DNA from: a virus
Lineage: Duplodnaviria > Caudoviricetes
Reading direction: 5' to 3' (one strand)
Virus record (IMG/VR): IMGVR_UViG_3300034012_002112
Span: 1-58,647 of that record
DNA length: 58,647 nucleotides
A program made the position numbers and the translations under genes. This document shows, in pieces, positions 9,684 through 26,100 of this stretch. Each line of letters opens with the position of its first letter. Positions within the stretch are counted from its first letter, which is position 1. The notes beneath the pieces are model-generated. The model was not told the origin of the DNA and did no database searches. It saw only the letters and a program-made list of their open reading frames with translations.

Positions 9684-12309
9684 TTTCTAGTTCATCTTCC
9701 ATTGTCGCATCAGCATTCACTTCTAGCGACATCCCATAGAACTCCTTGTACTTCTGTTTATCGGATGACACCTCCACAACGGACGGCCAATCCTCATATT
9801 TCGGGCTGGACTCCCGTACGGCAACGTTCACCATCCGCATGCCCCTGGTATTCCGCATGGGGAATGCGTTGATCTTGAGCTGATGCTTACAGACATCAAC
9901 AAACAGAGGTTCAAAGCGGTTCCGTGACATCACACCAACGTTGCACTGGCGGCAGAACTCGGCATAACTTGCGTACAACCACTTGTCCTGATTGGCATAG
10001 ATATGGGATGAACCCATCGGTGCATTCTTTGTGAAGCCCACAGCTGAACTCACACCTGGGTCATACACCACCTTGTGTTCCATCCAGTCCAACAGTGGGT
10101 TGGACCTGAGGTTCTGCATCTTCTCGTACTTCTGGAAGAACTTCACCCGCTTGGCGGTCTCCATCAGGTAGTTCCGCATCTCCTCCTCGCTCATGTCCAG
10201 GAGCCAGTTCACCAGCCCTGGCAGCAGAGGCGAGAACACACCCTGTGGTTCACCCTTGGAATTGAACTTAATCAGTTCCTTTTGTTCATTCGGGCCGCCC
10301 GTGAACGGACGGTCGAAAGGAATGGTGAGGCGACGACGGGCCAAACCAGAGGTGTAGTCGGTGGACTGAATAGCTTCGTTGGCCGTAATCATCACCATCC
10401 CGTGGTATTGGAATGGATCTAATGCTTCGCCCTGATACTTGCGTTCACTACGGATCCAGTCATTACCGGTGATGGCCTTCAGGCGAGAGACCGAACCACC
10501 CCAGCGGTCAGCATCCTGGAACAGCAACAGCTTCTTACCCATGTAAGCAGCTGCCTCAAAACGGTTCTTCTCCATGTTCTCGAAGTCCGTTGAGTAGGTA
10601 TTACTCTTACCCACCAGTGCGACAGCCAAGTTGGCGTAGGTGGATTTACCCGACTTACCCGGACCCACAATCTCAATGAACTTCTGGATCTCATAGCGAC
10701 CCAAGAGTGTGGCCCTAAGCCATGCCCGCAGAACTTGAGTGCGCTCCCAGCTGTCGTGCTGCGTATGCTTCAGCCACTTAACAATTTCTTCACATGTAGC
10801 AGATGGATCGTAGGGGTACGGCATCTGCTGGATCATGTGCTGCTCCTTAGTAAATGGAAGCAGCTCCCTGGTCTCGACATTCAGAACACCGTTGGTGAAC
10901 AGCAGGAATTCCGAGCCGTCATACCAGTCCTCAAAGGACAGGATCGACTGCAGCTGGCTGAACACATCGTTCATCAGGTTGGAGCTGAAGCCATTGGGGA
11001 GGAAGTCACCCAGCAGTTGCAGTTTGTGGCGGATGTCGCCCAAGATCTCAATCTTGGTCAGGGGTGACCAGAGACCACGGGCCTCCTTCTGGTACTGAAA
11101 AAACTGACCGTGGGGTTGACTGAAGAGCAGATCCCCCTTATACAGATCCAGAACAACGTCGGTAACTACGTTCGATGAAGGGTTTCGCGTCCGCTGGTCT
11201 TTGCCTGTTTTGTCTGCAGGCACCTGCTTTTGCCGTGAACTCCACAACGGTTGAGCAGCAGTGGGAGCCGTGGTTTGCTCCAGTACTTCAGGTGCCATCT
11301 GTAGATCCTCTTCTAGTTCAGCCAATAAATTTGAAACGTGTTCTAATGTCGCATCATCAACATTCATCGCACGGTGTTCCTGGGAAGGCTTCCAGCCATG
11401 CTCCTGGGCGATGTGAATAAGGGAGCCGACGCCACGGCCACCACCTTTCGAGAAGGAACGCCAACGCCTGTGGCACTCACCGTCCCTGTACTTTTCCGAC
11501 TGCTTGGACCATTCGTCCCATTGCTCCAGCAGTGATTCATCCAACGAGTGCAGCGACTGACCAATCGTGATCCAAATGTCGTAGTCATCCGTTGCTTCCG
11601 GCGGCAGTGCCCACATGGCTTCTGTCGCCAGCTTCATGTCCCGTTCAAGGGAAACCTCAGCGTTGATGGCAAAGCTGGGGCCAACGATCCGAGTACGTTC
11701 GCGAGCCGGTGTGCCTTGGCGAACATTCTTGTTGATGATGGCGTTCAGCAGCCAGTCCGGGAACTCAGGCAGCTCTGGCACCCACTCAAAACCTTGGCCT
11801 TCTGCCGTGTAGTAACCATCAGTCTCAGGGTGTAGACCCATGAGAACGCCCTGGTGCCGCTGCCACAGGATCTCCAGTTTTTCTTTATCTTCTTCTGCGT
11901 GCCAGGTGTATTTGTTCCGGACGAAGTGCTTGTGCTTCTCCCGGTCCAGGCGATACAGCTTCCGCTCACGACCGATCTTCCCGCTGAGGATGGTCAGGGT
12001 CGGAGGCAGTGCTTCCTGGAGGGGCAGGTCAGAGATGCCTTCGATGAGCGGATAAACGCTGGGGCCATCGACATCAACCCATACCAAGCCATAGGGATGG
12101 TTGTAGACCGGACCACCAAGCAGACCGATAGCCCTGCAGTTGCCAGCGACAATTTCTTCTTCGACTTCCCGTACGCTGAACGGTTTGTTCTGCCACCCGT
12201 TGACGTAGGGATCCTTCTTGGCACCCAAGGGCGTGAGGGGCCAGTCCAGAGGGATGTAGCTGAGATTGATCTCGCCTGGTCTGAGGGCTTGCTGGCTGCG
12301 GCTGGTCAT
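9670..12309 (-). CDS. Prim-Pol/PriCT-2 primase fused to D5-type SF3 helicase
   Basis: WVDVDG primpol motif; YDIWITIGQSLH...WDEWSKQSEKY (PriCT-2); GPGKSGKST Walker A; LKAITGND, ITANE. Confidence 0.92.
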   Translation of the reverse strand: MTSRSQQALRPGEINLSYIPLDWPLTPLGAKKDPYVNGWQNKPFSVREVEEEIVAGNCRAIGLLGGPVYNHPYGLVWVDVDGPSVYPLIEGISDLPLQEALPPTLTILSGKIGRERKLYRLDREKHKHFVRNKYTWHAEEDKEKLEILWQRHQGVLMGLHPETDGYYTAEGQGFEWVPELPEFPDWLLNAIINKNVRQGTPARERTRIVGPSFAINAEVSLERDMKLATEAMWALPPEATDDYDIWITIGQSLHSLDESLLEQWDEWSKQSEKYRDGECHRRWRSFSKGGGRGVGSLIHIAQEHGWKPSQEHRAMNVDDATLEHVSNLLAELEEDLQMAPEVLEQTTAPTAAQPLWSSRQKQVPADKTGKDQRTRNPSSNVVTDVVLDLYKGDLLFSQPHGQFFQYQKEARGLWSPLTKIEILGDIRHKLQLLGDFLPNGFSSNLMNDVFSQLQSILSFEDWYDGSEFLLFTNGVLNVETRELLPFTKEQHMIQQMPYPYDPSATCEEIVKWLKHTQHDSWERTQVLRAWLRATLLGRYEIQKFIEIVGPGKSGKSTYANLAVALVGKSNTYSTDFENMEKNRFEAAAYMGKKLLLFQDADRWGGSVSRLKAITGNDWIRSERKYQGEALDPFQYHGMVMITANEAIQSTDYTSGLARRRLTIPFDRPFTGGPNEQKELIKFNSKGEPQGVFSPLLPGLVNWLLDMSEEEMRNYLMETAKRVKFFQKYEKMQNLRSNPLLDWMEHKVVYDPGVSSAVGFTKNAPMGSSHIYANQDKWLYASYAEFCRQCNVGVMSRNRFEPLFVDVCKHQLKINAFPMRNTRGMRMVNVAVRESSPKYEDWPSVVEVSSDKQKYKEFYGMSLEVNADATMEDELENADV

Positions 12310-13734: not shown

Positions 13735-14000
13735 ACAAGTTCATCCTCGGCGTTCAGGGATACATCTCCTGCTTCGGCTGGATCCTCCAAGCCATCTGCC
13801 AATACATCCTGGAAGAATGCCCTGACTTAAAATTCTGGAAGGGCCATACAAACTTTGACGATCACATCTGGTACGCCGAGCGGGTGAACGGACGTATTGC
13901 GATGGTGGTCCTAACGGTTGTATTGCTGTATGAATTCACAACGCATACCAGTATTTGGAGTCTGATCGATGGCATCCAACATCACACGGTTCTACCTTGA
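13731..14000 (+). CDS. hli: high-light inducible protein-like
   Basis: Chlorophyll-binding motif AERVNGRIAM followed by a TM helix. Confidence 0.8.
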   Translation: MNKFILGVQGYISCFGWILQAICQYILEECPDLKFWKGHTNFDDHIWYAERVNGRIAMVVLTVVLLYEFTTHTSIWSLIDGIQHHTVLP

Positions 14001-14130
14001 CTTTGATGAGGAGTGCAGGACCGGTTGCCTGAATGGCAAAGTGTTTGAAGATGTTGAAACAATAGAAGCCGACGAGTTTGAGAAGCGTTTACAAGCAGAA
14101 GAAATCTCTTATATTCGGGTAGATCTGTAA
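13969..14130 (+). CDS. small acidic hypothetical protein
   Basis: MASNITRFYLDFDEECRTGC..., 53 aa, GGAG upstream. Confidence 0.55.
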   Translation: MASNITRFYLDFDEECRTGCLNGKVFEDVETIEADEFEKRLQAEEISYIRVDL

Positions 14131-14137
14131 ACCATTC

Positions 14138-15694
14138 ATGACTGGCAAGCGCATCGCAGTGCTCACACTGTGGCGAGATAACAGTGACAACATTGGTCAC
14201 GCGCTTGCCCAGTACGAATGGATGGAAGACGAGCTGATCCCCAGGGGATACCGTTTCATCTACGCCTTCCTGGAGAACGATTCCAAAGATATGACGGCAG
14301 GAATCCTGCTGCGTTGGATGGAAGATCGCAAGGGATTTTTGACTTCCGAGAAGACTGGATCCCGTAAGTGGGGCAGTGTTCAGTCGACCGAACGTACCAA
14401 GTGGCTGGCCCGATACCGCAATATTTGCCTGAGTTCCCTTGACTTCTGGGCTTTTGATTACCTACTGGTTGTCGATAGTGACGTTCATTACCGTCCTGAT
14501 CTCGTTGAGACGATGGTCATGGAGATGGAGAACGATCCAGGCCTGGGGATGATCACACCTAATACGGTACAGGACGTTACGGATGCGATTGGTGACACCG
14601 GACTTCCCTCTTATTACGACAGCTGGGCACTGATCGACCTGGAAGGAAACCAGGGGATGACGTTTGCCGCCAACCCATTCCTCGATCCAGATGATCGGCG
14701 CAACTGGGAAGATAACTTTCCCATCGAAGTCAAGAGCGCCTTTGGTTCGATTGCCATGATCCGTGGCTCCATTCTGGAGGAGCATGACATTGCATGGGAT
14801 GGTGAAAAGGGTTGTGAGCACTGGGGCTTATGCCAAGGAATCCGTGATGCCGGTTACGCCATCATCGTGGAACCTGAGCTTCACGCTGAGATCAAACACA
14901 AGGAGGAAGTGGTCCCCCACCCAGATGTGGTTGCATTCCACAAGGATCGGCTCCGGCAATACACGGTTAACATCATCCGTGGCCCTGAAGTGCCTAAGGA
15001 TTTCACCATTACTTTTGGTATCTGCACCGGCTATACCAATGCCGAGCACCTGATCAAGTGCGTTGAATCCATCCGCAACCAAGCCAAGGATCTCGACGAC
15101 TACCAGATCTTGGTCATTGGCCCAGAAGCACCCGACGCCATTGTTGAGGAGCTGGACCACCCCGACATCGAGTTCATCACTTTCGATGAATCGGTGCGTC
15201 CAATGTGGATCACCAAGAAGAAAAACATCCTGGCGCAGAAGGCAGACTTTGATCGCCTGTGCCTGATGCATGATTACATGTGGCTGACCCCCAACTGGGC
15301 CAAGAAATTGTCGGAGTTTGAATACCACAACTACTGGAATGTACTTGCGTTCCCGCAACAACGGGCAGACGGCGGTAGGTTCTGGTACGACTGGAGTGGA
15401 TTCCGTGGTCCCCGTGAGTTGGATGATCGCCAGTTCTATGACTACAAAGATTGGGATCACAATGATGAGGTGTATATCTCAGGCAACATCCTTTGCGTGC
15501 ACCGTGGCCTGTTGATTGAGCACCCCTTCGACGAAAGCCTGGGGCACATGGATGAAGAAGATCTGGAATGGAGTCGTCGCGTTGCTCCTTACGCTCACTT
15601 CAAGTGTGTATATAACTCACTCGTGTGTCACCAAAAAGAACACCGCGATCAAGCATTCTTTGATACCGTGGATTCAACTAAGGGTGCGTCATGA
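14138..15694 (+). CDS. two-domain GT-A glycosyltransferase
   Basis: Domain 1 LENDSKD, LARYRN, VDSD, SAFG, CEH; domain 2 ITFGICT, WITKKKN, MHDY, EDLEW. Confidence 0.85.
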   Translation: MTGKRIAVLTLWRDNSDNIGHALAQYEWMEDELIPRGYRFIYAFLENDSKDMTAGILLRWMEDRKGFLTSEKTGSRKWGSVQSTERTKWLARYRNICLSSLDFWAFDYLLVVDSDVHYRPDLVETMVMEMENDPGLGMITPNTVQDVTDAIGDTGLPSYYDSWALIDLEGNQGMTFAANPFLDPDDRRNWEDNFPIEVKSAFGSIAMIRGSILEEHDIAWDGEKGCEHWGLCQGIRDAGYAIIVEPELHAEIKHKEEVVPHPDVVAFHKDRLRQYTVNIIRGPEVPKDFTITFGICTGYTNAEHLIKCVESIRNQAKDLDDYQILVIGPEAPDAIVEELDHPDIEFITFDESVRPMWITKKKNILAQKADFDRLCLMHDYMWLTPNWAKKLSEFEYHNYWNVLAFPQQRADGGRFWYDWSGFRGPRELDDRQFYDYKDWDHNDEVYISGNILCVHRGLLIEHPFDESLGHMDEEDLEWSRRVAPYAHFKCVYNSLVCHQKEHRDQAFFDTVDSTKGAS

Positions 15695-17061
15695 ATAAAC
15701 TCATCTGCTTTGATCTTGATGGAGTCCTGGTCGACAGTAAGGACATCCACTTTCAGGCATTGAATGAAGCCCTGGCTGAGATTGACCCGAAGTATGTGAT
15801 CACCCGTGAGGAACACCTCAAGACATACGACGGCCTATCTACCAGTGTGAAGCTGGACCTACTGACCAAGAACAAGGGACTGCCAACCCAGTACCACCAA
15901 AAGGTCTGGGACATCAAACAACGATTGACAACGGACTATTTCAACGAGTTTGAAATGGATCCGCAGTTGATTGAGCTGTTGGTTCACATCAAGTGCCAAG
16001 GCATCAAGGTGGCGGTGGCATCCAACTGCATTCGTAAATCTGTACAGAATGCGTTGTACTCCCTACACCTCTTCCCGTTCATCGATTATTTCGTCAGTGC
16101 AGATGAGGTGACACGCAAGAAGCCATCACCTGATTTGTATTGGGAGTGCATGATCCATTGCAATGCAACTCCTTCTAACACGGTGGTGTTTGAAGATTCA
16201 CATGTCGGCCAGCAAGCTGCCCTGGACTCTGGCGCCCATGTGATCTGCGTTAAGAACCGCCTGGATCTAACTGCCGAAAAGATTCAGAAAGGTATTAACA
16301 TTCTCACAGAAGAAGTCATCGTTAAACCTAAACCGCACATGGAAGATCTCAACGTACTGATCCCAATGGCAGGCCGTGGGTCTCGGTTTGCTGCAGCCGG
16401 TTATACGTTCCCCAAACCGTTGATTGATGTGCGTGGCAAACCCATGATCCAGTGGGTGGTTGAAAACGTAGGGATCAAAGCGAACTATACGTTCATTGCA
16501 CAGCAGGAACACATTGATCAATACAGTCTGCCCAGCCTTCTCAATCTGATCTCCCCTGGTTCTAATGTGGTTTCAGTCGATGGTGTTACCGAAGGTGCGG
16601 CGTGCACTGCACTACTGGCCCGCGATCTGATTGACAATGACAAGCCCCTGCTAATCCTTAACAGCGACCAATACCTGGAGTGGGATCCAATCCACAGCCT
16701 GTACCAGCTGGAAAACAGCAAGGCCGATGGTGCGATCTTCACTTTCTATAGCACCCACCCGAAGTGGAGCTACGTCAAGCGTGAGCCTGGTACAACCAAC
16801 ATCGTTGAGGTAGCGGAGAAGAAGCCAATCAGTCACGATGCCACCTGCGGTGTGTATTGGTGGCGCAAGGGATCTGACTTTGTCAAGTACGTAGATCAGA
16901 TGATTGCAGCTGACGATAGAACCCTTGGTGAGTTTTATATTTGCCCTGCTTACAACTATGCCATCAACGATGGTAAAAAAATTTCTGCAGTCCCAGTTCG
17001 GGCCATGCACGGGCTTGGTACCCCAGAAGATCTTGACATTTTTTTGAAGGAGTTTGCCTGA
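15691..17061 (+). CDS. HAD phosphatase fused to sugar nucleotidyltransferase
   Basis: FDLDGVLVD, KPSP, FEDS; then LIPMAGRGSRF...PKPLI...EKKPIS...LGTPEDL. Confidence 0.9.
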   Translation: MNKLICFDLDGVLVDSKDIHFQALNEALAEIDPKYVITREEHLKTYDGLSTSVKLDLLTKNKGLPTQYHQKVWDIKQRLTTDYFNEFEMDPQLIELLVHIKCQGIKVAVASNCIRKSVQNALYSLHLFPFIDYFVSADEVTRKKPSPDLYWECMIHCNATPSNTVVFEDSHVGQQAALDSGAHVICVKNRLDLTAEKIQKGINILTEEVIVKPKPHMEDLNVLIPMAGRGSRFAAAGYTFPKPLIDVRGKPMIQWVVENVGIKANYTFIAQQEHIDQYSLPSLLNLISPGSNVVSVDGVTEGAACTALLARDLIDNDKPLLILNSDQYLEWDPIHSLYQLENSKADGAIFTFYSTHPKWSYVKREPGTTNIVEVAEKKPISHDATCGVYWWRKGSDFVKYVDQMIAADDRTLGEFYICPAYNYAINDGKKISAVPVRAMHGLGTPEDLDIFLKEFA

Positions 17062-17546
17062 TGGTATTTATTAGCCCGATATCCCATCGCGGTAATTTAC
17101 GCGGCCCAGAGCCAGACAAAGAGAATAACCCGGACTACATCGATGCAGCTATCAATGAGCTGTATGAAGTAGAGGTTGACATTCGTTACATTGAAGGTAA
17201 CTTCTACCTCGGTCACGATAGTCCGGAGCACTTTGTTGATCTGCACTGGTTAAAGGAGCGGACTGAATACCTGATCCTCCACTGCAAGAACTTGCCGGCC
17301 CTTTACTTACTCAAGGACCAGCACCATTGCTTCTGGCACGAGAGCGATTGTTACACACTGACAAGCCGCAACAAGATCTGGACTTATCCCAATCAGAACG
17401 TCGGGCCTGACTGCATCATTGTCGACCTGGAACCTCCGACCAGAGAGAAGGTGGAAGGCTGGAAGGCTAAGGGATGCTATGCAGTTTGTAGTGATTACGC
17501 TGATATTATTAGCTATGGGTCGGAATCCATCCCTAAGATGGTTTAG
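17061..17546 (+). CDS. glycerophosphodiester phosphodiesterase-like protein
   Basis: ISHRGN, EVEVDI, LGHD, HCKN, VCSDY. Confidence 0.75.
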   Translation: MVFISPISHRGNLRGPEPDKENNPDYIDAAINELYEVEVDIRYIEGNFYLGHDSPEHFVDLHWLKERTEYLILHCKNLPALYLLKDQHHCFWHESDCYTLTSRNKIWTYPNQNVGPDCIIVDLEPPTREKVEGWKAKGCYAVCSDYADIISYGSESIPKMV

Positions 17547-17710
17547 TAAACCGAATACCTAATTCAAAATGGCACTGCAAGAATACGAAGATGCACTGGT
17601 GCAGGGTTATCAATTCTTAGATAATCACAACCAGTTACTCCACAGTCTCAAACTCTCGCGTCTCAATGCTGATCATAACTCCTATACTGAGAACACCCAA
17701 GGAATCGGAA

Positions 17711-17905
17711 ATGGCTCTGTCCAACCAGGTGAAGGAATCGGTGAAGCAGGCGACGGAAGCGTTGCGTGATGCACTGGCTTTTGCTGCACGAGCAGAGCAT
17801 CCCATCACGATTAACATGATTGCCGACATGCTGAGCAGGCTTGAATCCCTGGAGCATGTGGATGAAATCATGGAGCGTTTTGGTGGACAGCCCATCCAAA
17901 AGTAA
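17711..17905 (+). CDS. hypothetical helical protein
   Basis: MALSNQVKESVKQATEALRDALAFAAR..., 64 aa. Confidence 0.7.
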   Translation: MALSNQVKESVKQATEALRDALAFAARAEHPITINMIADMLSRLESLEHVDEIMERFGGQPIQK

Positions 17906-18086
17906 ATTCAGACAGCCAACTGAACAAGAACGGCTAGAAGATTACTTCTGGAAGCTGGAAAGCCTGATCCCTAATCCTCCAAGGGATTGGGCAAAGTCTG
18001 CTCGTCCGTGTAAGTGGGCTAAAATATTAGAAGAAAAGAAAAACAATCCTGATGCCCCAGGACGACAGCAAATATTCCAAGCCTGA
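17841..18086 (+). CDS. hypothetical protein (start uncertain)
   Basis: Fills the gap between neighbouring genes. Confidence 0.45.
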   Translation: MNPWSMWMKSWSVLVDSPSKSKFRQPTEQERLEDYFWKLESLIPNPPRDWAKSARPCKWAKILEEKKNNPDAPGRQQIFQA

Positions 18087-18336
18087 ATTACGCGAGAACA
18101 TCAAAGATCGTGTGATGTCTGGCTCTAAGGGCGGTAAGCCAGGGCAGTGGAGCGCACGCAAGGCACAACTTGTTGCTCAGGAATATGAGAAAGCAGGTGG
18201 TGGTTATAAGGGAGGCAAGGGAGAAAAACAGAAGTCTTTGGAGAAGTGGGGTAAAGAGAAGTGGATGACAAAGGATGAATATGAAAAGCGTAGTAAAGCT
18301 AAAGCTGCTGCTAAGAAATATAAGGATAACAAGTAA
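18052..18336 (+). CDS. basic protein, DUF5872-like N-half
   Basis: YSKPELRE...GGKPGQWSARKAQ...GGGYKG...SLEKW. Confidence 0.75.
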   Translation: MPQDDSKYSKPELRENIKDRVMSGSKGGKPGQWSARKAQLVAQEYEKAGGGYKGGKGEKQKSLEKWGKEKWMTKDEYEKRSKAKAAAKKYKDNK

Positions 18337-18360
18337 ACGGTAATTATTAGGAATCCTGTT

Positions 18361-18567
18361 ATGGCAGACAAAGCAATACAGAAGGGATACACCAAGCGGT
18401 ACCTACCGGAATCCGCCTGGGCGTCACTGTCCAAAGAAGAACGACAGGAGACAGACCAGAAGAAACGTGCTGCTAGCAGAGAAGGAAAACAATTTGTGAA
18501 GAATACGGAAGCAGCAGAGAAAGCAGGCCGTGCCGCTCGTGCAGCCAAGCGTTATAAGAATAAGTAA
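18361..18567 (+). CDS. basic protein, DUF5872-like C-half
   Basis: RYLPESAWASLS...KKRAASREGKQFVKN. Confidence 0.7.
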   Translation: MADKAIQKGYTKRYLPESAWASLSKEERQETDQKKRAASREGKQFVKNTEAAEKAGRAARAAKRYKNK

Positions 18568-18602
18568 TTTCTCGTATAATTAGTAAAGAAATATTTCTAA
18601 TC

Positions 18603-18770
18603 ATGGCTGAAGGCAAGAAGTTTGTCCCTGGCAAGGGCATGGTCCCCGCTGGCAAGGCAGCCCCCGCCAAGGGCGCCAAGAAGGAAGCCGTTCCCCCCAA
18701 GAAAGGTGCGGCTCCTGCCAAGAAAGGTGCGGCTCCTGCCAAGAAGGCTATGCCCCCTAAGAAAAAGTGA
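18603..18770 (+). CDS. Lys/Ala/Pro-rich histone H1-like peptide
   Basis: Not in track: MAEGKKFVPGKGMVPAGKAAPAKGAKKEAVPPKKGAAPAKKGAAPAKKAMPPKKK; 21-bp tandem repeat; TATAAT upstream. Confidence 0.7.
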   Translation: MAEGKKFVPGKGMVPAGKAAPAKGAKKEAVPPKKGAAPAKKGAAPAKKAMPPKKK

Positions 18771-18832
18771 TCTATCGTAACTTCTAATTTGTTCCTAATT
18801 TGAAATAGATTAGGAGTTCATTAGGAGTTTAG

Positions 18833-19498
18833 ATGACCACTCTTGTTGCGAACGTACCTCCCGTCAAGGTCTGGGTGCGGCGCGAGTATTTGCGTGACCT
18901 GCGCGATGGCCATGGGGAATACACCCCCGGCTATTGGGTTACATGTAAATCGCTCACTGGCCGCGCCCTGTACTTTGAGACGTACCTGATGGAGTACGGA
19001 GCGCTGTATGACAAGCTGCCCATCAGTGCATTCTTGTCCTGGGACCCTGACCATCCGGACAAACCCGTAGCGCCAACCCCAGATCTAGAGTTGACAGACC
19101 TTCAGTTCTGGAATGGGTTTGATCACGGGTTAGTTGTTGTTGAAAAGAATTTAATCTTCAATATGAGTTTTGAAGTCCTGACACGAAGTGCAGGTGTAAT
19201 GAAGGGCACATATCTATTTACGGTTGACAATTACCATCCTCATAGAAACGAACCCGACTTCTATTTTGCGGAGTTTCCAGATGAGCACAAATCCCATAAC
19301 ATCGTGGCTCTGGACAACGGTCAAATTGGTGCTTATCCCAATAACCGTTGTCGCATGTGCGATCCATCACTGACCAACCACGACCTCAAGACGCCTGACT
19401 TCAAGGTATCCACCCGTTACTTTGATGTAGAGCAGGCACCTAAGTGGGGCCGCCTTGGTGAACAAGATGATTACTTCTGGAAAACACCTAACGAATAA
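18833..19498 (+). CDS. conserved phage hypothetical protein
   Basis: 221 aa; ANVPPVKVWVRREYL, YGALYDKLPISAF, LDNGQIGAYPNNR. Confidence 0.8.
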   Translation: MTTLVANVPPVKVWVRREYLRDLRDGHGEYTPGYWVTCKSLTGRALYFETYLMEYGALYDKLPISAFLSWDPDHPDKPVAPTPDLELTDLQFWNGFDHGLVVVEKNLIFNMSFEVLTRSAGVMKGTYLFTVDNYHPHRNEPDFYFAEFPDEHKSHNIVALDNGQIGAYPNNRCRMCDPSLTNHDLKTPDFKVSTRYFDVEQAPKWGRLGEQDDYFWKTPNE

Positions 19499-19500
19499 TT

Positions 19501-19509
19501 TGGTATAGT
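19501..19509 (+). promoter_or_regulatory. extended -10 promoter for the ncRNA locus
   Basis: TGGTATAGT (TGn-TATAGT) just before the structured region. Confidence 0.55.
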
Positions 19510-19511
19510 AT

Positions 19512-19689
19512 CTTTGATAGAGGTCAGGTCCCTGCTTGCACACCTGATCCATTATCGAAGTCCTGGGCAACCAGGCCAGGGGGATGGCCTCCCCTGCCAA
19601 TAACACCCCCTATGCTTAGCTCCTATACATAGACCATTTTGTTGATATCACCAAAATGGTTTTTAGGATGATGCACAAACCTGGGGGTC
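19512..19689 (+). ncRNA. multi-helix structured RNA, unassigned
   Basis: Stems CTTTGATAG/TTATCGAAG, GGTCAGGT/ACCTGATC, CCTGG-GCAA-CCAGG, CAGGGG/CCCCTG, ACCCCC/GGGGGT, TCCTA/TAGGA, ACCATTTTG/CAAAATGGT. Confidence 0.6.
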
Positions 19690-19692
19690 ACT

Positions 19693-19769
19693 GGGTCGGT
19701 AGTCCATTGGCAAGGACAGGGCGACAAGCCACACTGCACTGACAGTCGGTTCGATTCCGGCACGACCCT
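19693..19769 (+). ncRNA. tRNA-like RNA without canonical anticodon arm
   Basis: Acceptor GGGTCG/CGACCC, D arm GTCC-ATTGGCAA-GGAC, T arm GTCGG-TTCGATT-CCGGC; 26-nt middle has only GGC-GACAA-GCC. Confidence 0.7.
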
Positions 19770-19770
19770 T

Positions 19771-19808
19771 GGGGTACTCGCCAGGCAGATAGCCTGGAAG
19801 GAGGCCCC
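19771..19808 (+). ncRNA. GC-rich hairpin between the tRNA-like elements
   Basis: GGGG..CTC..CCAGGC-AGATA-GCCTGG..GAG..CCCC. Confidence 0.45.
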
Positions 19809-19812
19809 GTTT

Positions 19813-19883
19813 CGGGATGTAGTAGAAAAGTATCACACTGCTTTTGGGAAGCAGAGGAGAAGGGGCGGTACCTTCCATCCCGA
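19813..19883 (+). tRNA. trnP: tRNA-Pro(TGG), atypical D and T loops
   Basis: CGGGATG/CATCCCG acceptor, A73, CTGCT-TTTGGGA-AGCAG anticodon arm, GAAGG-GGCGGTA-CCTTC T arm; CCA not encoded. Confidence 0.8.
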
Positions 19884-19928
19884 TTCCTAATAAATTACTT
19901 ATATTAAGCAGACAACTAAAAGTTATTT

Positions 19929-20189
19929 ATGCCCTGGGCCAAGGGTAAAGAACGCATCCACCAAAATAGACAGAAGCTCTTGGAGTACAAGAAAACTTTG
20001 AAATGCAAAGAGTGTGGGATAGATGATCATCGTGTCCTGGAGTTCCACCACGTTGGGGATAAGGACAAGAATGTTTCAGACATGGTAAATCATGGTTACG
20101 GCTGGAGCCGCATCCAAGAAGAGATTGATAAGTGTATTCCGTTATGCTGCAACTGCCACAGGCTCATCCATTGCGAAGCGTCGCCTTGA
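19929..20189 (+). CDS. HNH endonuclease (small Zn-binding type)
   Basis: CKECG...LEFHH...KCIPLCCNCHRLIH. Confidence 0.85.
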   Translation: MPWAKGKERIHQNRQKLLEYKKTLKCKECGIDDHRVLEFHHVGDKDKNVSDMVNHGYGWSRIQEEIDKCIPLCCNCHRLIHCEASP

Positions 20190-20715
20190 TTTGCCAAGCA
20201 GCCTTGAATGCTTCACCGGTTAGTTCTGCCATGTAGTTCTGAATATCAATGGCACCAACCTTGGCGGCAATGGGTTCCAGCTTCTTGCACTTCATGCCCA
20301 GTTCTTCCAGGTTCTTGTAGTACACAGCAAGCATATCGTTACCCTTGTAGCTGGTAACGTTCTGGATACCAGGGCCTGCGTCTGCCAGCCCACGGGCACA
20401 CATTGGCAGAAGGTAGTCCATGGACCTGATGAACTCACTTAACGTATCGAACTGTTCAAGATGAGCCTCGTACTGGTCTTTAAGGAACCCATGCACACCG
20501 AGGAAGTTCGACCCCTCGTAGTTCAGGTGAATGAGATGGGACTGTGTTTGAAGTTCCTTGAGATAGGAACAGAGGGAGATGCACTGCTGAATGAAGGCCC
20601 CGACATCACCATTCTTTGATTTACCAGGAGCCTTGGGTTTGTCCTGGGGCTGGGGAGTGGCTTGAGTTGGGGCAGTTTGCGGAGCAGGAGCCGCTTGAGG
20701 ACCAGGGGTATACAT
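20164..20715 (-). CDS. dps: Dps/ferritin-like protein
   Basis: HLIHLNYEGSNFLGVHGFLKDQYE...DTLSEFIRS...KAAWQI. Confidence 0.8.
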   Translation of the reverse strand: MYTPGPQAAPAPQTAPTQATPQPQDKPKAPGKSKNGDVGAFIQQCISLCSYLKELQTQSHLIHLNYEGSNFLGVHGFLKDQYEAHLEQFDTLSEFIRSMDYLLPMCARGLADAGPGIQNVTSYKGNDMLAVYYKNLEELGMKCKKLEPIAAKVGAIDIQNYMAELTGEAFKAAWQIKATLRNG

Positions 20716-20785
20716 AATTCTTAAGCTGTATTTACAGTTTAAACTAAACTAACAATGGGTTTAGAATAAAAAAAACAGAAAAACA

Positions 20786-21124
20786 ATGCACAATACACAA
20801 GGGTTTTTTACTACTTACGAATCTCTTGCCGCCCCTGCATCTGGACAAAGCACACTGGTCCAGCTGGGTGGAGATATTGTGACACAAAATTACACTTTAT
20901 TTACAACTGTCAGCAATATTAATACTAACGTTGTTATTGCTTTAAACGGTTCAATTGATGGTGAAAATTGGTCTAAAATTATTGGAAATACTACTATCTC
21001 AACAAACGGAACCTCCCATATAAACGTTGCAAACCACCCAGTTAAATACGTTCAGCCAATTTTTGTTTCTGAGTCAGGCGGAACAGCTGCAACAGTTTTA
21101 TTTTCTCTTGGAGCAAGTGCTTGA
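20786..21124 (+). CDS. hypothetical beta-sandwich protein, likely virion
   Basis: LNGSIDGENW motif; TAGAAT upstream. Confidence 0.7.
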   Translation: MHNTQGFFTTYESLAAPASGQSTLVQLGGDIVTQNYTLFTTVSNINTNVVIALNGSIDGENWSKIIGNTTISTNGTSHINVANHPVKYVQPIFVSESGGTAATVLFSLGASA

Positions 21125-21279
21125 TTTATAATGTGACCAGCGGAACCTTTACTGCTTCTGGTGCAACCTTTATTACTACGTTAATCAATGCAGCTGATGA
21201 CACTGCAGCTCAGGCAAGTGGTGTAGCCGTTGGTCAGCTTTATCGCACTAGCTCTGCTATTAAAGTCCGGGTCTCCTGA
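21121..21279 (+). CDS. small fibre-tip-like peptide
   Basis: TTG start (TTGA overlap, GGAG 7 nt upstream); ...AADDTAAQASGVAVGQLYRTSSAIKVRVS. Confidence 0.55.
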   Translation: MIYNVTSGTFTASGATFITTLINAADDTAAQASGVAVGQLYRTSSAIKVRVS

Positions 21280-21482
21280 TCCCAACCGTCAATCAAATGA
21301 CCATAGTCCCGTGGCTCAGTCACAGGAATATGTGTTGATTTGCAGACATCACAATTCCCGTAATGATAGGTGGCATAGTGTTGCTTAGGTGCTTCTACAT
21401 CGCACTGATACCACCTGCCGTACTTGGTACCGCAGCTGTCGCAGATCCAGACGGGATAGTCAGGCTTCTTCTTTCTTGCCAC
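21240..21482 (-). CDS. Zn-finger hypothetical protein
   Basis: WICDSCG...CDVC...VTEPRDYG. Confidence 0.7.
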   Translation of the reverse strand: MARKKKPDYPVWICDSCGTKYGRWYQCDVEAPKQHYATYHYGNCDVCKSTHIPVTEPRDYGHLIDGWDQETRTLIAELVR

Positions 21483-21816
21483 TGATCAAGTCCAAAAATA
21501 CCTTGGCCTTATCGTACTCATGTTTTGTGTAGTTGTAGTTGTCAGTTGCAGCCGTTAACAATGCACTGAACAACTGTTCACCAGAGAGATCACAACTGAA
21601 CTCAGCCAATGTATCAGCAAAATACTCAGTTGCTTTCTTTAAGGACAACTGCTCAGCATCACTGACAAGTTGAGCAACAGCATTGGTGGTGTCGTGCAGG
21701 TTCTCACGACTGTCCTTGGTTTCCATGGGGGTATCAATCTCAGCTATTAGCCTATGGTTTCGATACCACTTTTGCCATTCCTTAATGGAATCAATAGGTT
21801 CGTTGGTGGTGTCCAT
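21460..21816 (-). CDS. hypothetical protein
   Basis: 118-aa ORF. Confidence 0.7.
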   Translation of the reverse strand: MDTTNEPIDSIKEWQKWYRNHRLIAEIDTPMETKDSRENLHDTTNAVAQLVSDAEQLSLKKATEYFADTLAEFSCDLSGEQLFSALLTAATDNYNYTKHEYDKAKVFLDLISGKKEEA

Positions 21817-21820
21817 AAGT

Positions 21821-21853
21821 AAAAGGGACGCACCACTAGCGTGGCACGTCCTT
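21821..21853 (-). terminator. probable rho-independent terminator
   Basis: GGACGTG...CGTCCC-TTTT hairpin. Confidence 0.5.
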
Positions 21854-21880
21854 AAGTAATGTTCAGTTCAGTGTAGACAT

Positions 21881-22174
21881 TTATGCAGGTTGAAGTTGTC
21901 CTTCTTCATAAAGACGGACAGCTTCCATCATTTCGAAGTAACGGTTACGCATAACAGGGCCTGCTTCCCGAATACAGAAGTCAGCCCAGAGTCCGGTATA
22001 CAAACCATGCATTGGATGGCTGGGATCCTGGCGACCAGAACACTGATACATGTGTTCCATAAAGTCGGACTTCCGTTGTTCTGCCGGAACACTCCAGTTG
22101 CGGAGTTGTTCCTTTAACCAAGGGGTATCAAAAGCACCAGCAGTGTTGAGTTTTTTAGCCAGATCTTCAGTCAT
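21881..22174 (-). CDS. hypothetical protein
   Basis: MTEDLAKK...FMEHMYQCSGR...LYTGLW. Confidence 0.7.
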   Translation of the reverse strand: MTEDLAKKLNTAGAFDTPWLKEQLRNWSVPAEQRKSDFMEHMYQCSGRQDPSHPMHGLYTGLWADFCIREAGPVMRNRYFEMMEAVRLYEEGQLQPA

Positions 22175-22364
22175 TGTTAACAATTGCTGTGATGGAAGTG
22201 TAGACGCCGACCACGTCAGGGCTGGATTCAAACAGGAGATTGTCTAGCTCATCCTGGAGAGCAGCAGCCACTTGATCAGGTGTTCGCCCAGTGAACGGGT
22301 CGTAGTCTACCTCAAGATCAACCGCAAATGATACGGTTAACTTTGGCACAGTAATTGGTTCCAT
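22167..22364 (-). CDS. hypothetical protein
   Basis: 65 aa, overlaps the downstream start. Confidence 0.65.
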   Translation of the reverse strand: MEPITVPKLTVSFAVDLEVDYDPFTGRTPDQVAAALQDELDNLLFESSPDVVGVYTSITAIVNND

Positions 22365-22423
22365 TCCTTGATGAAAGGTTCCAATTACTGTAGCAGTAAA
22401 TTAAAAACAATTAGTGAGTAGGA

Positions 22424-24121
22424 CTACGCGCCCTTGAGAGCTGCTACTTCAGCTTCCAAGGTTTCGATGCGCAGTTGTGCCTCCTGCAGTGCTTTGATGG
22501 CCATCCACATCATCTGTTGGTCCTTGACGCCGAGGCGTTCTTCTTGGGCAGGCTCGGTCTCGGTGGCTTCTTTAGCTTCCTGGAAGACCGTGATCACTTC
22601 CGGGCAGCTTTCAGCCACCTGCTGGGCAATGACGCCCATGTTCAGGTCAGCGTCGTCAGGCTGGTCCTTGTAGCGGAAGTTAACGATCTCCCATTCCTTC
22701 AGGCAGTCCCAAGTGTCATTGGCTGGGGTGATGTCCTTCTTGGTATTTATGTCAGATAGGTTGACATTGTTAGCACTATAATTAGCAACGCCACCGTTTG
22801 AACGGACCGCAAATCTGGTAGTCGATGTATCCCCGCAAGCAATAAAAGCATTTGAAGTATCGTTTGGCGCTTGCCCAGTGTAATTAATAGATATGCCGCC
22901 AAGACCACCCGAAGTAGCTGTGTGGTCTATCCATAAAGCATTGTCTCCCCCAGTACTTTGTCTAAACTCGTGATACAAACCAGTTGCGTTTCTGTAACCA
23001 CCAGTATTCGATGCCTTAAGGAAGCCGCTTGATGTAATCCTCATCCGCTCCGTAGGACTAGACGCGCCGTCTGCGGTAGTGGAGAACACTAAACGCGACG
23101 GGTAGTCATTCGTAGTGTTCCAGTTGGCATCGGCTACAGCTTCAATAACTGCAGAAACCGTTGACTCGGAGTTGCTGAACTGGATGCTGCCTAGGGATTC
23201 TCCGCTAAGGATGCTGGCGTTATTTTCGCCACGACGCAGTTGAATAATCGCATCTCCAGCAGAGCTGCTTGAATTACCTTGGACTTGAAGTAGTGCAGTG
23301 CTAGAAGTCGAAGACGTGCCAACTAACAGGCGTTTTGAACTATCAATGCGAAGCGCCTCGTCTCCACCAATTTGAAACTGGTAGTTATTAAGGTCTGAGC
23401 CGACATTAAATCGAACACCTACAGAAGCAACGTTCCTTTTAATTGTGAAGTCAGCACCATCACCCAACTGGATACCAGATTCCGCGCTTGTATCGCCAAG
23501 ATTGAGAGCTGTGGCAGGTGCAGTAGTGCCAATCCCTACACGGTTATTAACAGCATCAACATATAAAGTTGTTAAGTCAATTGCAACATTACCATTTTCG
23601 TCAACAGTAAGTTTGTCATCGTTACCAGCTTTGCTGATTGTAAATGTATTATTGTTAATGCCACTAATACCTACACGCCATCTTACTGTTTGACTTGAAG
23701 CAATATTAAAACAGACAGATGGTGCAGCATTTCCATTAATAAAAATACCTTCATAATTAGTTGAGTTACTTACGTGTAAAGATTGTTGAGGATCTGCCAT
23801 GTTAATACCAACACGACCAGTTGCGCCAATATACAAGCGTTGAGTACCACCTGTTGCAAGAGCTAGTTGATCTGCCCCTGGTGAGTACATCCCAGTGTCT
23901 GGGTCTGTGGTCCAGCTATAAGTTGGAGCGGAAGCACTACCTAATGAAACAGCTTCTAATTGACCTGCGGAATCAATCCGTAAGCGTTCAGTTGTATTGG
24001 TTGCAAACGACAGTTGATTTGTCGCAGACAGGTACACACCATTTGCAGGTGCACTACTTGTTCCAGTAAAAGAAAGTGCCTGAACTAAATTATCAATTAG
24101 CTGGGCTTTTGTCTGCGACAT
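22424..24121 (-). CDS. tail fibre with S74 chaperone, outside the tail module
   Basis: DPDTGMYSPGADQLAL, RVGIGT repeats, SDINTKKDI...GVIAQQV...coiled coil. Confidence 0.9.
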   Translation of the reverse strand: MSQTKAQLIDNLVQALSFTGTSSAPANGVYLSATNQLSFATNTTERLRIDSAGQLEAVSLGSASAPTYSWTTDPDTGMYSPGADQLALATGGTQRLYIGATGRVGINMADPQQSLHVSNSTNYEGIFINGNAAPSVCFNIASSQTVRWRVGISGINNNTFTISKAGNDDKLTVDENGNVAIDLTTLYVDAVNNRVGIGTTAPATALNLGDTSAESGIQLGDGADFTIKRNVASVGVRFNVGSDLNNYQFQIGGDEALRIDSSKRLLVGTSSTSSTALLQVQGNSSSSAGDAIIQLRRGENNASILSGESLGSIQFSNSESTVSAVIEAVADANWNTTNDYPSRLVFSTTADGASSPTERMRITSSGFLKASNTGGYRNATGLYHEFRQSTGGDNALWIDHTATSGGLGGISINYTGQAPNDTSNAFIACGDTSTTRFAVRSNGGVANYSANNVNLSDINTKKDITPANDTWDCLKEWEIVNFRYKDQPDDADLNMGVIAQQVAESCPEVITVFQEAKEATETEPAQEERLGVKDQQMMWMAIKALQEAQLRIETLEAEVAALKGA

Positions 24122-24156
24122 CTTAAAGAACGGTTTCCAGTTCCTTCATTTTAATG

Positions 24157-24417
24157 TCAGTTGCCCAATAACTTTTCAAGGGAATGTGCTTGGTGTTGTT
24201 GGTAAAAACCAAGCCGTTCTTGAATTACATTGTAATAGTTGATAGCACCATCAACCATTTCTTCTGCTGTCATCTGAGAAGCCAGTGCTTCATTCGATAA
24301 CATGGCTGCCACCAACATGGTAACACCCCACTCTTGCTTACTGCCAACCAGTGCAGAAAGGGGAGTCCCATCTTGCGTGAACCCAGCCAGTAGTTTGGAA
24401 ACGTTCCCGTCAATCAT
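24157..24417 (-). CDS. hypothetical protein
   Basis: 86 aa. Confidence 0.7.
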   Translation of the reverse strand: MIDGNVSKLLAGFTQDGTPLSALVGSKQEWGVTMLVAAMLSNEALASQMTAEEMVDGAINYYNVIQERLGFYQQHQAHSLEKLLGN

Positions 24418-24452
24418 GGGACCCCTTGCATATTTATTTATTGTATTGCCAT

Positions 24453-24860
24453 TTATTTCTCAGCCCGTGCCAGGTAATACCAATAAGCACGTGCTGCATT
24501 CTGATTGAACCGTTTGCCTTGTAGAAGCTTGAGCTTTTTGTGTTCAAGATCTTCTACATGGTTGCTCTGGTAAGGAGGCACATCATCACCGTCATAGAGC
24601 ATGGATGTCTCCAGTTCATTCATTTGCAACTGCAGATTGAAATCATCAACAGCATGGTTGTGGCAGCTCATACGGATATGAGCATCCTCCAGATCAGTCG
24701 GAGGTTCCAGCTTCAGATAGAAGCTCTCCGAAATGTTGGGATGCATCCAAATCCAAGTCTGATCCTGTGACGATTCGTTTGGTGCGGACACTGTATTCTT
24801 GGACGACTTTGACTCCATGGGGCAGGGGTTGACCGGTTTTGTAGGCGTTGCGGAGGGCAT
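24453..24860 (-). CDS. hypothetical protein (start uncertain)
   Basis: Overlaps the 3' end of the upstream gene. Confidence 0.6.
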   Translation of the reverse strand: MPSATPTKPVNPCPMESKSSKNTVSAPNESSQDQTWIWMHPNISESFYLKLEPPTDLEDAHIRMSCHNHAVDDFNLQLQMNELETSMLYDGDDVPPYQSNHVEDLEHKKLKLLQGKRFNQNAARAYWYYLARAEK

Positions 24861-25407
24861 CTGAATTAGGAAGGATTTCAGTTTTTGTTTTAGGTTCGAT
24901 CTTCTCTTCGAGGATCGAACCGTCCATAGAACGTACCACGGTTTGCTTGGTTGTGGTGACTTCTTGTTCTATACAGAATTGCTGGCGCTCCTCTGCAGTC
25001 CAATACTCATGGTCAGATGAGATCTCAACAGTCAGATCTTTCTTCTTGACCAGGACAAACTGGTAGTTCCGTCCTGTGATCTTGTTTTCATCCTTAGGCA
25101 GCGACCGACGCAGCCAGCTCAGTAAACTCTTGAGCCCCCGCAGCTGGGATTCGTGGTGACGTTTGGCTTGACCCAGAAGCTCTGATTCTTTCTTGATGCG
25201 CTCCAGTGCTTCCTCATGGGACGCCAACGCGTAATGAATACGATCCACCTTTTCAGACCGTAGCTTGGCGCAAGCTTCCAGCTCAGCTCGTGCCATGTCC
25301 TGGGATTCAGGAGTGAGGAGAGGAAGAGAGCGTTCCAGGGCACCATAGTGCTCGTACAGCTGGAGGACATTGAGTTCTTTTAGTTTAGTTTGAGTGACTT
25401 GCGTCAT
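24694..25407 (-). CDS. Siphovirus Gp157/Gam-like coiled-coil protein
   Basis: EKVDRI...RIKKESELL...LKSLL...PHGVKVVQ pattern. Confidence 0.65.
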   Translation of the reverse strand: MTQVTQTKLKELNVLQLYEHYGALERSLPLLTPESQDMARAELEACAKLRSEKVDRIHYALASHEEALERIKKESELLGQAKRHHESQLRGLKSLLSWLRRSLPKDENKITGRNYQFVLVKKKDLTVEISSDHEYWTAEERQQFCIEQEVTTTKQTVVRSMDGSILEEKIEPKTKTEILPNSDALRNAYKTGQPLPHGVKVVQEYSVRTKRIVTGSDLDLDASQHFGELLSEAGTSD

Positions 25408-25409
25408 GA

Positions 25410-25529
25410 TCAGATGGTGTTGAAGTGGGATTGAATTTTGTTGAGTGTGTAGGCCAGCAGCGCTGCGGCTGCTGTCCAAAGAAGATCTTTTAATACAGGA
25501 AGTAAAGTTCCAATCAAAGATTCAAACAT
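25410..25529 (-). CDS. small TM peptide
   Basis: MFESLIGTLLPVLKDLLWTAAAALLAYTLNKIQSHFNTI. Confidence 0.6.
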   Translation of the reverse strand: MFESLIGTLLPVLKDLLWTAAAALLAYTLNKIQSHFNTI

Positions 25530-25552
25530 GAGATTGAACTGTGTTGTGTTGG

Positions 25553-25580
25553 TGGGTAGTTTTACGTCGTGCCCAGGACG
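25553..25580 (-). promoter_or_regulatory. leader pseudoknot motif, copy 1
   Basis: CGTC-CTGGGCAC-GACG-TAAAAC-TACCCA. Confidence 0.75.
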
Positions 25581-25598
25581 GCTCCACTGCAAGCGGAG

Positions 25599-25841
25599 TT
25601 AGTCTACCAGCTCTGTCAAGTCCTGATACCAGTCGGGAATTTCTTCCCCCAAGACTTCAGCACAGGCAGCATGGAGGGCAGACATAACAAAAGCCTTCTG
25701 CCCTTCTTCACCCCAGCTGGTCCAGAGTGCTAGATCAGGATCAGTATCATCCCATTCGATATGAATGGTGCAGCTACCGTCTTCCTCATCAATCACCTCG
25801 ATCTTTAGCTTTTCTGTCCAGTTCGTGTTCGACATGGCCAA
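25599..25841 (-). CDS. acidic hypothetical protein
   Basis: EEDGSCTIHIEWDDTDP. Confidence 0.7.
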   Translation of the reverse strand: MAMSNTNWTEKLKIEVIDEEDGSCTIHIEWDDTDPDLALWTSWGEEGQKAFVMSALHAACAEVLGEEIPDWYQDLTELVD

Positions 25842-26100
25842 TTAGTACGTTTTGTGCGTAATCCTCATGATGCATCTTAAGGTCAGCTGCTAACTTAACC
25901 AGCTCCCAGTGAGTATCCTCTGGGACTTCAAGGTCATAACGTGTGTTGGGTTTCATGCGAGGTTGAGTTGCAAGTTGACGGGCGTAATCAAAAATGTCAT
26001 CGTCATCGGTTGGCGTGACATGCAGTTGTGTTGATGGGCACGTTGTACCCAAACGAAACTTCTCAATTCTTGCTGTGGAAAAGATTAAATCATTTGTCAT
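25789..26100 (-). CDS. possible ribbon-helix-helix DNA-binding protein
   Basis: RYDLEVPEDTHWELVKLAADLKM..EDYAQNVL. Confidence 0.55.
   Translation of the reverse strand: MTNDLIFSTARIEKFRLGTTCPSTQLHVTPTDDDDIFDYARQLATQPRMKPNTRYDLEVPEDTHWELVKLAADLKMHHEDYAQNVLIGHVEHELDRKAKDRGD

Follow-up and report, generated by a model that had tools for sequence, protein, structure and literature searches.

What is encoded in the 430-nt gap that lies between a purM-like gene and a small HNH open reading frame of IMG/VR virus record IMGVR_UViG_3300034012_002112, and what could it do for the phage that carries it? The 58,647-nt stretch analyzed here, called the window throughout, is a viral record of 74% estimated completeness. 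An earlier note, made from the letters alone, had placed in this gap a structured RNA of ~180 nt that heads a non-coding transcription unit and ends just before a tRNA-like element. The non-coding character assigned to the unit agrees with the reading frames, given that the plus strand of the gap carries no open reading frame of at least 30 aa before position 19844 (none was found between 19499 and 19843). The features that we find there and at its borders are collected in Table 1.

Table 1. Features of the non-coding unit and its flanking genes (positions are those of the window)
Feature	Position	Strand	Description
purM-like gene (phrog_3704)	18833-19498	+	directly 5' of the unit
Extended -10 promoter, TG-n-TATAGT	19501-19509	+	TG 19501-19502, TATAGT 19504-19509; read from sequence
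Module A stem-loop	19516-19556	+	GAUAGAGG, 5-bp stem, YCNCUG, variable insert, CAC, stem, UCCAU
Module B, two hairpins	19558-19597	+	conserved; fold and alignment A4
Module B hairpin 1, AAGUCCUGG-GCAA-CCAGGCC	19558-19577	+	alignment A4
Module B hairpin 2, CAGGGGG-AUGGCC-UCCCCUG	19577-19596	+	covaries by eye
Module C	19600-19692	+	abiF-type motif with inserted hairpin; model R1, 79.4 bits
Module C P1, 6 bp	19605-19610 with 19683-19688	+	outer helix
Module C P2, 3 bp, UGC/GCA	19613-19615 with 19673-19675	+	inner helix; RF03085 consensus AGC/GCU
Module C inserted hairpin	19621-19668	+	48 nt
Module C 3' bulge, CAAACCU	19676-19682	+	RF03085 counterpart CAAAUC
Module C linker, CACU	19689-19692	+	precedes the tRNA-like element
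tRNA-like element 1	19693-19769	+	acceptor stem, D arm, canonical T arm; 3-bp stem and GACAA loop replace the anticodon arm
Spacer hairpin, loop CAGAUAG	19771-19808	+	z = -3.82; 0 of 200 shuffles fold as well
tRNA-like element 2, degenerate tRNA-Pro(UGG)-like	19813-19883	+	Rfam tRNA, 41.5 bits (local), cut-off 29
HNH open reading frame	19929-20189		86 aa; matches positions 97-170 of a 211-position homing-endonuclease profile

We assign the source of the window to an S-EIV1-like freshwater cyanophage. Its purM-like protein is 85.5% identical to the homologue of Synechococcus phage S-EIVl, a 79-kb phage that originates from a high-arctic lake, and the gene is common to 80 IMG/VR contigs (67-95% identity). 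The runs that contain the stretch are DNA runs from lake-water metagenomes, with no RNA run among the 24, and DNA queries 19450-19950 and 14000-26000 retrieved no match among isolated phages. The purM-like gene itself has no Pfam match, and its phage homologues are named variously PurM, ferredoxin or transcriptional regulator. At the other border of the gap, the HNH reading frame overlaps the end of a minus-strand ferritin-like gene (20164-20715) and is probably what is left of a homing endonuclease next to the tRNA region.

Promoter and modular layout of the RNA

The unit opens with the extended -10 box described in the earlier note, a reading borne out by its relatives, in which boxes of the TGnTATAAT type (TGTGTATAAT, TTGTATAAT, TGTTATAAT or TGTTATGAT) stand 6-9 nt 5' of the same first stem, that of module A. 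Because no -35 element accompanies it, the box is missed by a simple -35/-10 scan; transcription likely starts at ~19515-19517. A second promoter candidate inside module C (TTGATA-16-TAGGAT, 19642-19669) was rejected, since such matches occur at chance level (2 found, 1.4 expected) and this one is absent from the short and plain forms of the module described below. The box as a promoter for a single-subunit RNA polymerase of the phage was also considered and dropped; our search for PF00940 came up empty, a result that is little informative given that the control also matched nowhere.

Beyond the box, ~177 nt of stems extend up to the tRNA-like fold. As the note had claimed, the minimum-free-energy fold of 19501-19689 consists of seven helices, among them the hairpin with the GCAA loop (19562-19575) and the long-range ACCCCC/GGGGGU closure, which corresponds to P1 of module C. 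At -67.5 kcal/mol (z = -2.86) this fold is matched by 2 of 200 shuffles, and the minus strand folds at -66.2 (z = -1.84), such that folding energy barely separates the strands. The preference for the plus strand proposed earlier emerges instead from the closure helix: all six one-sided changes seen among 33 distinct copies turn C to U on the 5' strand, and thus produce G·U on the plus strand and C·A on the minus strand. The RNA was also placed correctly next to the tRNA-like element, the fold of which starts 3 bases past 19689 and 4 nt after the closure helix.

What the note had missed is the modular build of the RNA. The region is structured, conserved and non-coding, but it is a chain of three modules that also occur separately and, elsewhere, in other orders, and we therefore describe A, B and C as three separately conserved modules and not as one new fold. 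When 19499-19930 was compared by BLAST with the 80 loci, 21 were matched, and these only piecewise (19516-19552, 19558-19598, 19599-19695, the two tRNA-likes and the spacer hairpin); in relatives, the pieces appear in differing orders and beside different tRNAs. The order seen in the window recurs in several relatives as terminator, extended -10 box, A, B, an optional extra module, C and a tRNA-like with a GACAA loop, and S-EIVl displays the same layout within an unannotated gap (16114-16545), its unit being placed at 16190-16560 of the record. We consider the best explanation of 19501-19692 to be a promoter followed by the 5' part of a predicted non-coding multi-unit transcript. A further structured module, beginning GGGUGCAACAAGGAACGUUGCA, sometimes stands 3' of module C in the place of the tRNA (loci L002, L041, L082, L085 and L114), and is also present in S-CREM1 (L357, ~1020-1100).

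Neither module A nor module B has a match in Rfam. The window carries the shortest form of module A, whose tip insert ranges from 0 to 43 nt across 26 sequences; its fold (19514-19557) has a z of -2.72, and the 26-sequence alignment A3 contains 17 invariant positions together with a 5-bp stem that, by eye, varies on both sides among lineages. In two loci (L095 and L108) module A lies immediately 5' of the abiF motif, to which we turn below. The fold of module B (19558-19599) is unremarkable (z = -0.43); in alignment A4 (25 sequences), two of the six pairs of its hairpin 1 are changed on both sides, this covariation being located at the tip, and the base is invariant. Module B immediately precedes the abiF motif in several viral contigs that are unrelated to one another and lies, among the matches listed, no more than 120 nt upstream of 15 of 143 distinct abiF motifs; its exact 37-nt pattern found no match in viral contigs. 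We regard modules A and B as two unnamed additions to the structured RNAs of phage tRNA regions.

Self-cleavage, which the note had also raised, finds no support here, in that no ribozyme family matches 19300-20100 or 19595-19700 at E up to 10; the covariance models for hammerhead, twister, pistol, hatchet and HDV-like ribozymes all failed to match at that limit. Two other candidate identities were likewise rejected. The GAAGUCC of module B resembles the P4 strand of RNase P RNA, but its partner strand is missing and none of the RNase P families matches; a Y RNA acting with Ro would call for the TROVE family, which is absent from the window.

Module C and its relation to the abiF motif

An Rfam covariance search gives a divided answer. 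No abiF match is obtained for the window copy, either at the gathering threshold of RF03085 (37 bits) or at E up to 10, whereas its sister phages carry, at the same position, a plain form that matches the 37-nt abiF motif RF03085 at 46.6-52.2 bits (cut-off 37). The plain-form loci match without exception (6 of 6; 46.6 bits for L084, 52.2 bits for each of the others), five of them lying on viral contigs and one, L221, on a MAG contig; none of nine hairpin-form loci reaches the cut-off. Rfam misses the window copy because a 48-nt hairpin replaces seven loop bases. The 11-nt terminal loop of RF03085, CUCUCAACGAU, is thus not kept in the window, where the loop reads U, UAGC, the 48-nt hairpin, U and GAU; the bases replaced are UCUCAAC, and only the last three of the original loop (GAU) are retained. 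In the short forms the hairpin measures 12 nt. Comparison of a plain locus (L084) with a long-hairpin locus (L102) shows the two to be collinear over the whole unit (388 aligned columns, 75% identity), and the plain and long forms therefore occupy the same position. On these alignments we classify module C as a hairpin-expanded variant of the abiF motif, and regard its plain and hairpin forms as orthologous.

A model built to cover all three forms recovered 55 copies in the 55 loci given to it, 33 of which are distinct: five plain (47 nt), 12 with a short hairpin (59 nt) and 16 with a long one (92-109 nt). The copy of S-EIVl (16275-16383, 50.5 bits) differs from that of the window by compensatory changes in both P1 and P2, its P2 being AGC/GCU. 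Across the 33 distinct copies, 96.6% of the cells are paired as against 35-51% with slid partners, the cells of P1 are all paired, and six pairs are changed on both sides, including four of the five at the base of the inserted hairpin and one in P1, although the alignment was fitted to the model and these counts partly reflect shared descent because the sequences are closely related. Further compensatory variants of P1 occur in L349-L356. The fold of module C has a z of -3.61, and its 23-nt 3' half occurs once in the window as against 0 expected. Among the matches listed, the base that follows CAAA in the bulge is C in 49 of the 50 phage copies linked to a tRNA. A search with a 14-nt pattern returned mostly chance matches. 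What the Rfam model misses, then, is a whole inserted-hairpin subgroup of abiF-type motifs.

The unit starts 3 nt past the stop codon of the purM-like gene, five U directly follow the long hairpin, and minus-strand reading frames of 79, 46 and 71 aa overlap the region, all of which could perceivably be explained if we were dealing with the 3' UTR or terminator of that gene, or with a small coding gene on the minus strand. We hold this to be highly improbable. The terminator scan found none, module C included, and the U run is not conserved, being missing in L099 and in all short and plain forms; relatives have a terminator and a promoter before module A, and there the unit stands beside other genes; and the lengths of the forms (47, 59, 92-94 and 109 nt) differ by amounts that are not all multiples of three.

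Similarly, the inverted repeat could act as DNA, marking a recombination or homing boundary at which tRNA cassettes are shuffled with the help of the HNH endonuclease, whose reading frame lies nearby. Mosaic breakpoints do fall at module edges, and different tRNAs follow the same module C. However, the changes in P1 are compatible with G·U pairing on the plus strand only, inserts of 0-62 nt between the two halves are tolerated only with an RNA hairpin, the base of which covaries, and the plain form is an established RNA family, all of which makes a signal at the DNA level very unlikely.

The tRNA junction, copy number and absence of a toxin gene

tRNA-like element 1, which directly follows module C, has a cloverleaf-like fold with a 5-nt loop, matches tRNA-Sec weakly (21.9 bits), scores below the tRNA cut-off of 29 bits and is missed by ARAGORN; its orthologues are called as tRNA by ARAGORN in L016, L019 and L014, and by Rfam in L084 (32 bits). 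We presume that RNase P cuts at this element and thereby sets the 3' end of the RNA that precedes it. Elements with this GACAA loop, whose stem covaries, are found in S-EIV1-like contigs, in S-EIVl and, unannotated, in S-CREM1; besides that of the window, examples lie at ~945-1015 of L357 and ~1610-1680 of L229. tRNA-like element 2 has an odd T loop and is likewise missed by ARAGORN; copies with 93% identity occur in L040, L041 and L045-L047, and other relatives have a canonical tRNA-Pro in its place. The spacer hairpin between the two elements is shared by L019 and other loci, and its stem covaries. Its CAGAUAG loop, or CACAUAG, recurs (in the window, L098, L316, L341 and L349-L354) either in a free spacer or in the anticodon arm of tRNAs and tRNA-likes, with an A at position 33, which is usually U; it is conceivable that loops lacking U33 might resist anticodon nucleases.

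The junction is not peculiar to the window, given that in other phages the abiF-type 3' module lies 3-9 nt upstream of genuine tRNA genes. At least 120 viral contigs carry the core of the motif, and 100 distinct copies have enough downstream sequence to be evaluated. Among the matches listed, 50 of these 100 have an ARAGORN tRNA that begins 12-18 nt past the CAAA of the bulge (Arg in 33 cases, Leu in 5, Ile in 4, then others); a U tract follows in 9 and other sequence in 41, the last group including tRNA-likes and tRNAs with long anticodon-loop insertions. Scored by a detector of an acceptor plus a T arm, 52 of the 100 motifs among the matches listed are positive, compared with 60 of 1929 random positions. 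A promoter, a non-coding unit and a tRNA-like element at its 3' junction make up the layout that would be expected if RNase P frees the upstream RNA. In five loci (L249, L250, L253, L275 and L315), the tRNA next to the abiF motif on its 3' side is interrupted past the anticodon by a long insertion, which may be an intron.

This arrangement, however, could also be that of a cis-acting pre-tRNA leader, in which A, B and C would stabilise the transcript, prevent termination or present the tRNA-likes to RNase P; they would then neither act in trans nor be connected with AbiF, whose systems would merely use a similar hairpin. In many phages no more than 0-9 nt separate the end of the abiF motif, or of module A, from a tRNA gene. 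Module A stands at the predicted 5' end of the transcript; a phage group unrelated to this one has it just past a promoter, with its end at the first base of tRNA-Asn, and the manA RNA of S-CREM1 likewise runs up to the first base of its tRNA-Asn. Since both module A and the abiF motif are found next to tRNAs in other phages, the two could share a leader role. Nevertheless, several copies would be expected of a general tRNA leader, and the motif is present in one copy per genome despite the several tRNAs and tRNA-likes of each cluster, which speaks against such a role: it is single in five of five records (one MAG and four genomes of 98% completeness or more) and in S-EIVl, and S-CREM1 has one abiF amid seven tRNAs in 3 kb. 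Moreover, in its loop and bulge bases the motif agrees with a copy linked to an Abi_2 gene (L332) and with the Rfam consensus, which speaks more for a shared protein partner than for a generic leader, and a search of 151 genomes of Actinomycetota, the one phylum sampled, and of 14 control genomes did not detect the motif at cellular tRNA genes. We thus regard the leader as a possible but rather unlikely explanation.

Within those 151 genomes the motif appears on one contig alone, which looks like a mis-binned cyanophage; six of the seven pattern matches on genome contigs are due to chance, the 5' half being missing. The contig in question belongs to an 'Acidimicrobiaceae' MAG (L221, L226 and L227) and reproduces the succession of tRNA-Asn, hairpin, abiF and tRNA-Gly of S-CREM1 letter for letter, and it is probably a mis-binned cyanomyovirus. 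An actinobacterial host for the phage of the window was rejected on the grounds that WhiB is absent and that the sole contig of such a label with the motif is this match to S-CREM1. In addition, 32 mycobacteriophage records show weak partial matches to the 47-nt plain motif (84-90% identity, E 0.07-0.9), which may be chance or diverged abiF motifs.

The toxin gene that would be expected beside an abiF motif is lacking. Abi_2 (PF07751) was found neither in the window nor in any of 13 other records searched, namely nine related viral records, one MAG, the complete S-EIVl, S-CREM1 and S-SRM01, with four of the viral records at least 98% complete. The classical arrangement was met once in the ten cases without a tRNA that were tested, in L332, where the Abi_2 gene lies 33 nt downstream of the motif (126.9 bits); in the protein-cluster atlas, its product matched Abi_2 clusters only and gave no cyanobacterial lead. 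In S-CREM1, a T4-like cyanomyovirus, an annotated abiF lies between tRNA-Asn and tRNA-Gly, and over 46 nt its identity with the plain form of an S-EIV1-like contig is 100%, even though the two phages are unrelated. The modules, their structure and strand, the homology to abiF, the orphan status, the single copy and the tRNA junction are established computationally, and together they describe an orphan abiF-type RNA that is single-copy, identical across unrelated cyanophage families and fused to a tRNA in half of the distinct phage copies among the matches listed. As a separate observation, wcaG, manA and abiF of S-CREM1 all lie between tRNA genes (L357, 720-1620; record 9745-10643), and manA and wcaG may be tRNA-processed RNAs rather than cis-regulators.

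A putative AbiF decoy and its known counterparts

The abiF RNA is also described as AbiFr; AbiF is thought to be the protein from which Cas13 descends, and its antitoxin RNA was characterised only in 2025. AbiF/Abi_2, a HEPN ribonuclease, together with its RNA, is classed as a type III toxin-antitoxin and abortive-infection system. [quoted passage not shown] ToxIN, another such system, is escaped by phages via mimics of the antitoxin RNA, as cited in PMC13064643. Toxin-antitoxin systems are described, in PMC9964418, as abundant in estuarine and freshwater Synechococcus, and S-CREM1 as carrying orphan protein antitoxins.

A phage that possesses an antitoxin-type RNA and no toxin could thus employ it as a decoy against AbiF defence. 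The reading that we tentatively favor, with somewhat less than even confidence, is that the A-B-C RNA is an orphan mimic of the AbiF antitoxin, released by RNase P at the tRNA-like element. The phage would transcribe the unit from the extended -10 promoter into an RNA of ~19516 to 19692, and host RNase P would cut at 19693, the 5' end of the tRNA-like, to leave an A-B-C RNA with a defined 3' end. The abiF-like domain would then bind an AbiF-type toxin of the host, keeping it neutralised while the host's own antitoxin RNA decays during infection, and the phage would thereby escape abortive infection. In this chain, we infer the transcription, the release by RNase P, the binding of AbiF and the existence of a host AbiF. 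The proposal rests on the RNA being toxin-free, single-copy, conserved base by base across phage families that share a host group, and placed for tRNA processing; the 46-nt identity across unrelated cyanophages, which would reflect a host-directed constraint, is counted in its favor. Counted against it are the failure of the window copy to match RF03085 at every threshold tried and the fact that modules A and B, two thirds of the RNA, are not known to have a partner. The main reason for caution is the rebuilt loop of the window copy; if AbiF contacts the terminal loop, this copy may bind a different partner or none.

That loop is also where a trans-acting RNA with another target comes in, for example a sponge or regulator of another HEPN protein or of an anticodon nuclease, for which the insertion would have retargeted an abiF-derived scaffold. 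The terminal loop is invariant in plain forms and rebuilt in the window copy, the hairpin forms make up a coherent subgroup (28 of the 33 distinct copies in the lineage), and the neighbouring tRNA-likes with unusual loops lacking U33 hint at a conflict with tRNA-cutting nucleases. Yet no candidate partner has been identified, and P1, P2, the loop GAU and the 3' bulge show no departure from those of abiF motifs. On balance, another target seems improbable to us. A broader and speculative extension of the mimic proposal, which we offer at low confidence, is that tRNA clusters double as a platform for RNA counter-defence, on which decoys interspersed between tRNAs and tRNA-likes would be cut out by host RNase P and RNase Z; the form of the window would then be a retargeted mimic that tracks a diverged AbiF-type nuclease of freshwater picocyanobacteria. 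The abiF mimic would be one such decoy; others might be the two modules A and B, the tRNA-like with its GACAA loop and the tRNAs lacking U33. Both S-EIV1 and S-CREM1 exist as cultured phage-host pairs.

How does this RNA compare with what is already known? Among the papers that our searches covered, we found none on abiF-tRNA fusions in phages, on a hairpin-bearing abiF form or on counter-defence, such as escape from AbiF, by such an RNA; abiF goes unmentioned in the main text of the 2017 motif paper. With RF03085 the window copy shares the 6-bp outer helix, the 3-bp inner helix, the loop GAU, a bulge of the CAAAYC type and the trailing U, and it differs in having a hairpin in place of seven loop bases, no Rfam match and no adjacent Abi_2 gene. 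Whereas a terminator and the toxin gene follow the RF03085 motif, the window has a tRNA-like element instead, in addition to modules A and B.

A close counterpart in print is the abiF sRNA of S-CREM1 (PMC9964418), which shares with S-EIV1-like phages the motif, its position between tRNA genes and the kind of host, and which, unlike the hairpin form of the window, is of the plain 37-nt form and resides in a T4-like myovirus. The accessible text of that paper presents it without a function, a link to the AbiF toxin or a remark on the tRNAs (PMC9964418). The window RNA would parallel the orphan protein antitoxins that the same paper ascribes to S-CREM1.

In terms of the proposed role, a close analogue is pseudo-ToxI, likewise a type III antitoxin RNA borne by a phage without its toxin, the role of mimic being, for the window RNA, our proposal. 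The pseudo-ToxI of phage phiTE is reportedly an antitoxin-RNA mimic against ToxIN whose function is proven. Pseudo-ToxI involves a different toxin family and a different RNA. ToxI consists of tandem repeats that its own toxin processes, whereas the window carries a single copy, the release of which is predicted to depend on tRNA-processing enzymes.

Finally, GOLLD, ROOL and the stable RNAs of the T4 tRNA region are tRNA-associated ncRNAs of phages, and these, together with manA and wcaG, are likewise structured and interleaved with phage tRNA genes. The window RNA has no sequence or model match to manA, wcaG, GOLLD or ROOL. Neither these four nor the T4 stable RNAs are known to have a protein partner, in contrast to the abiF motif.
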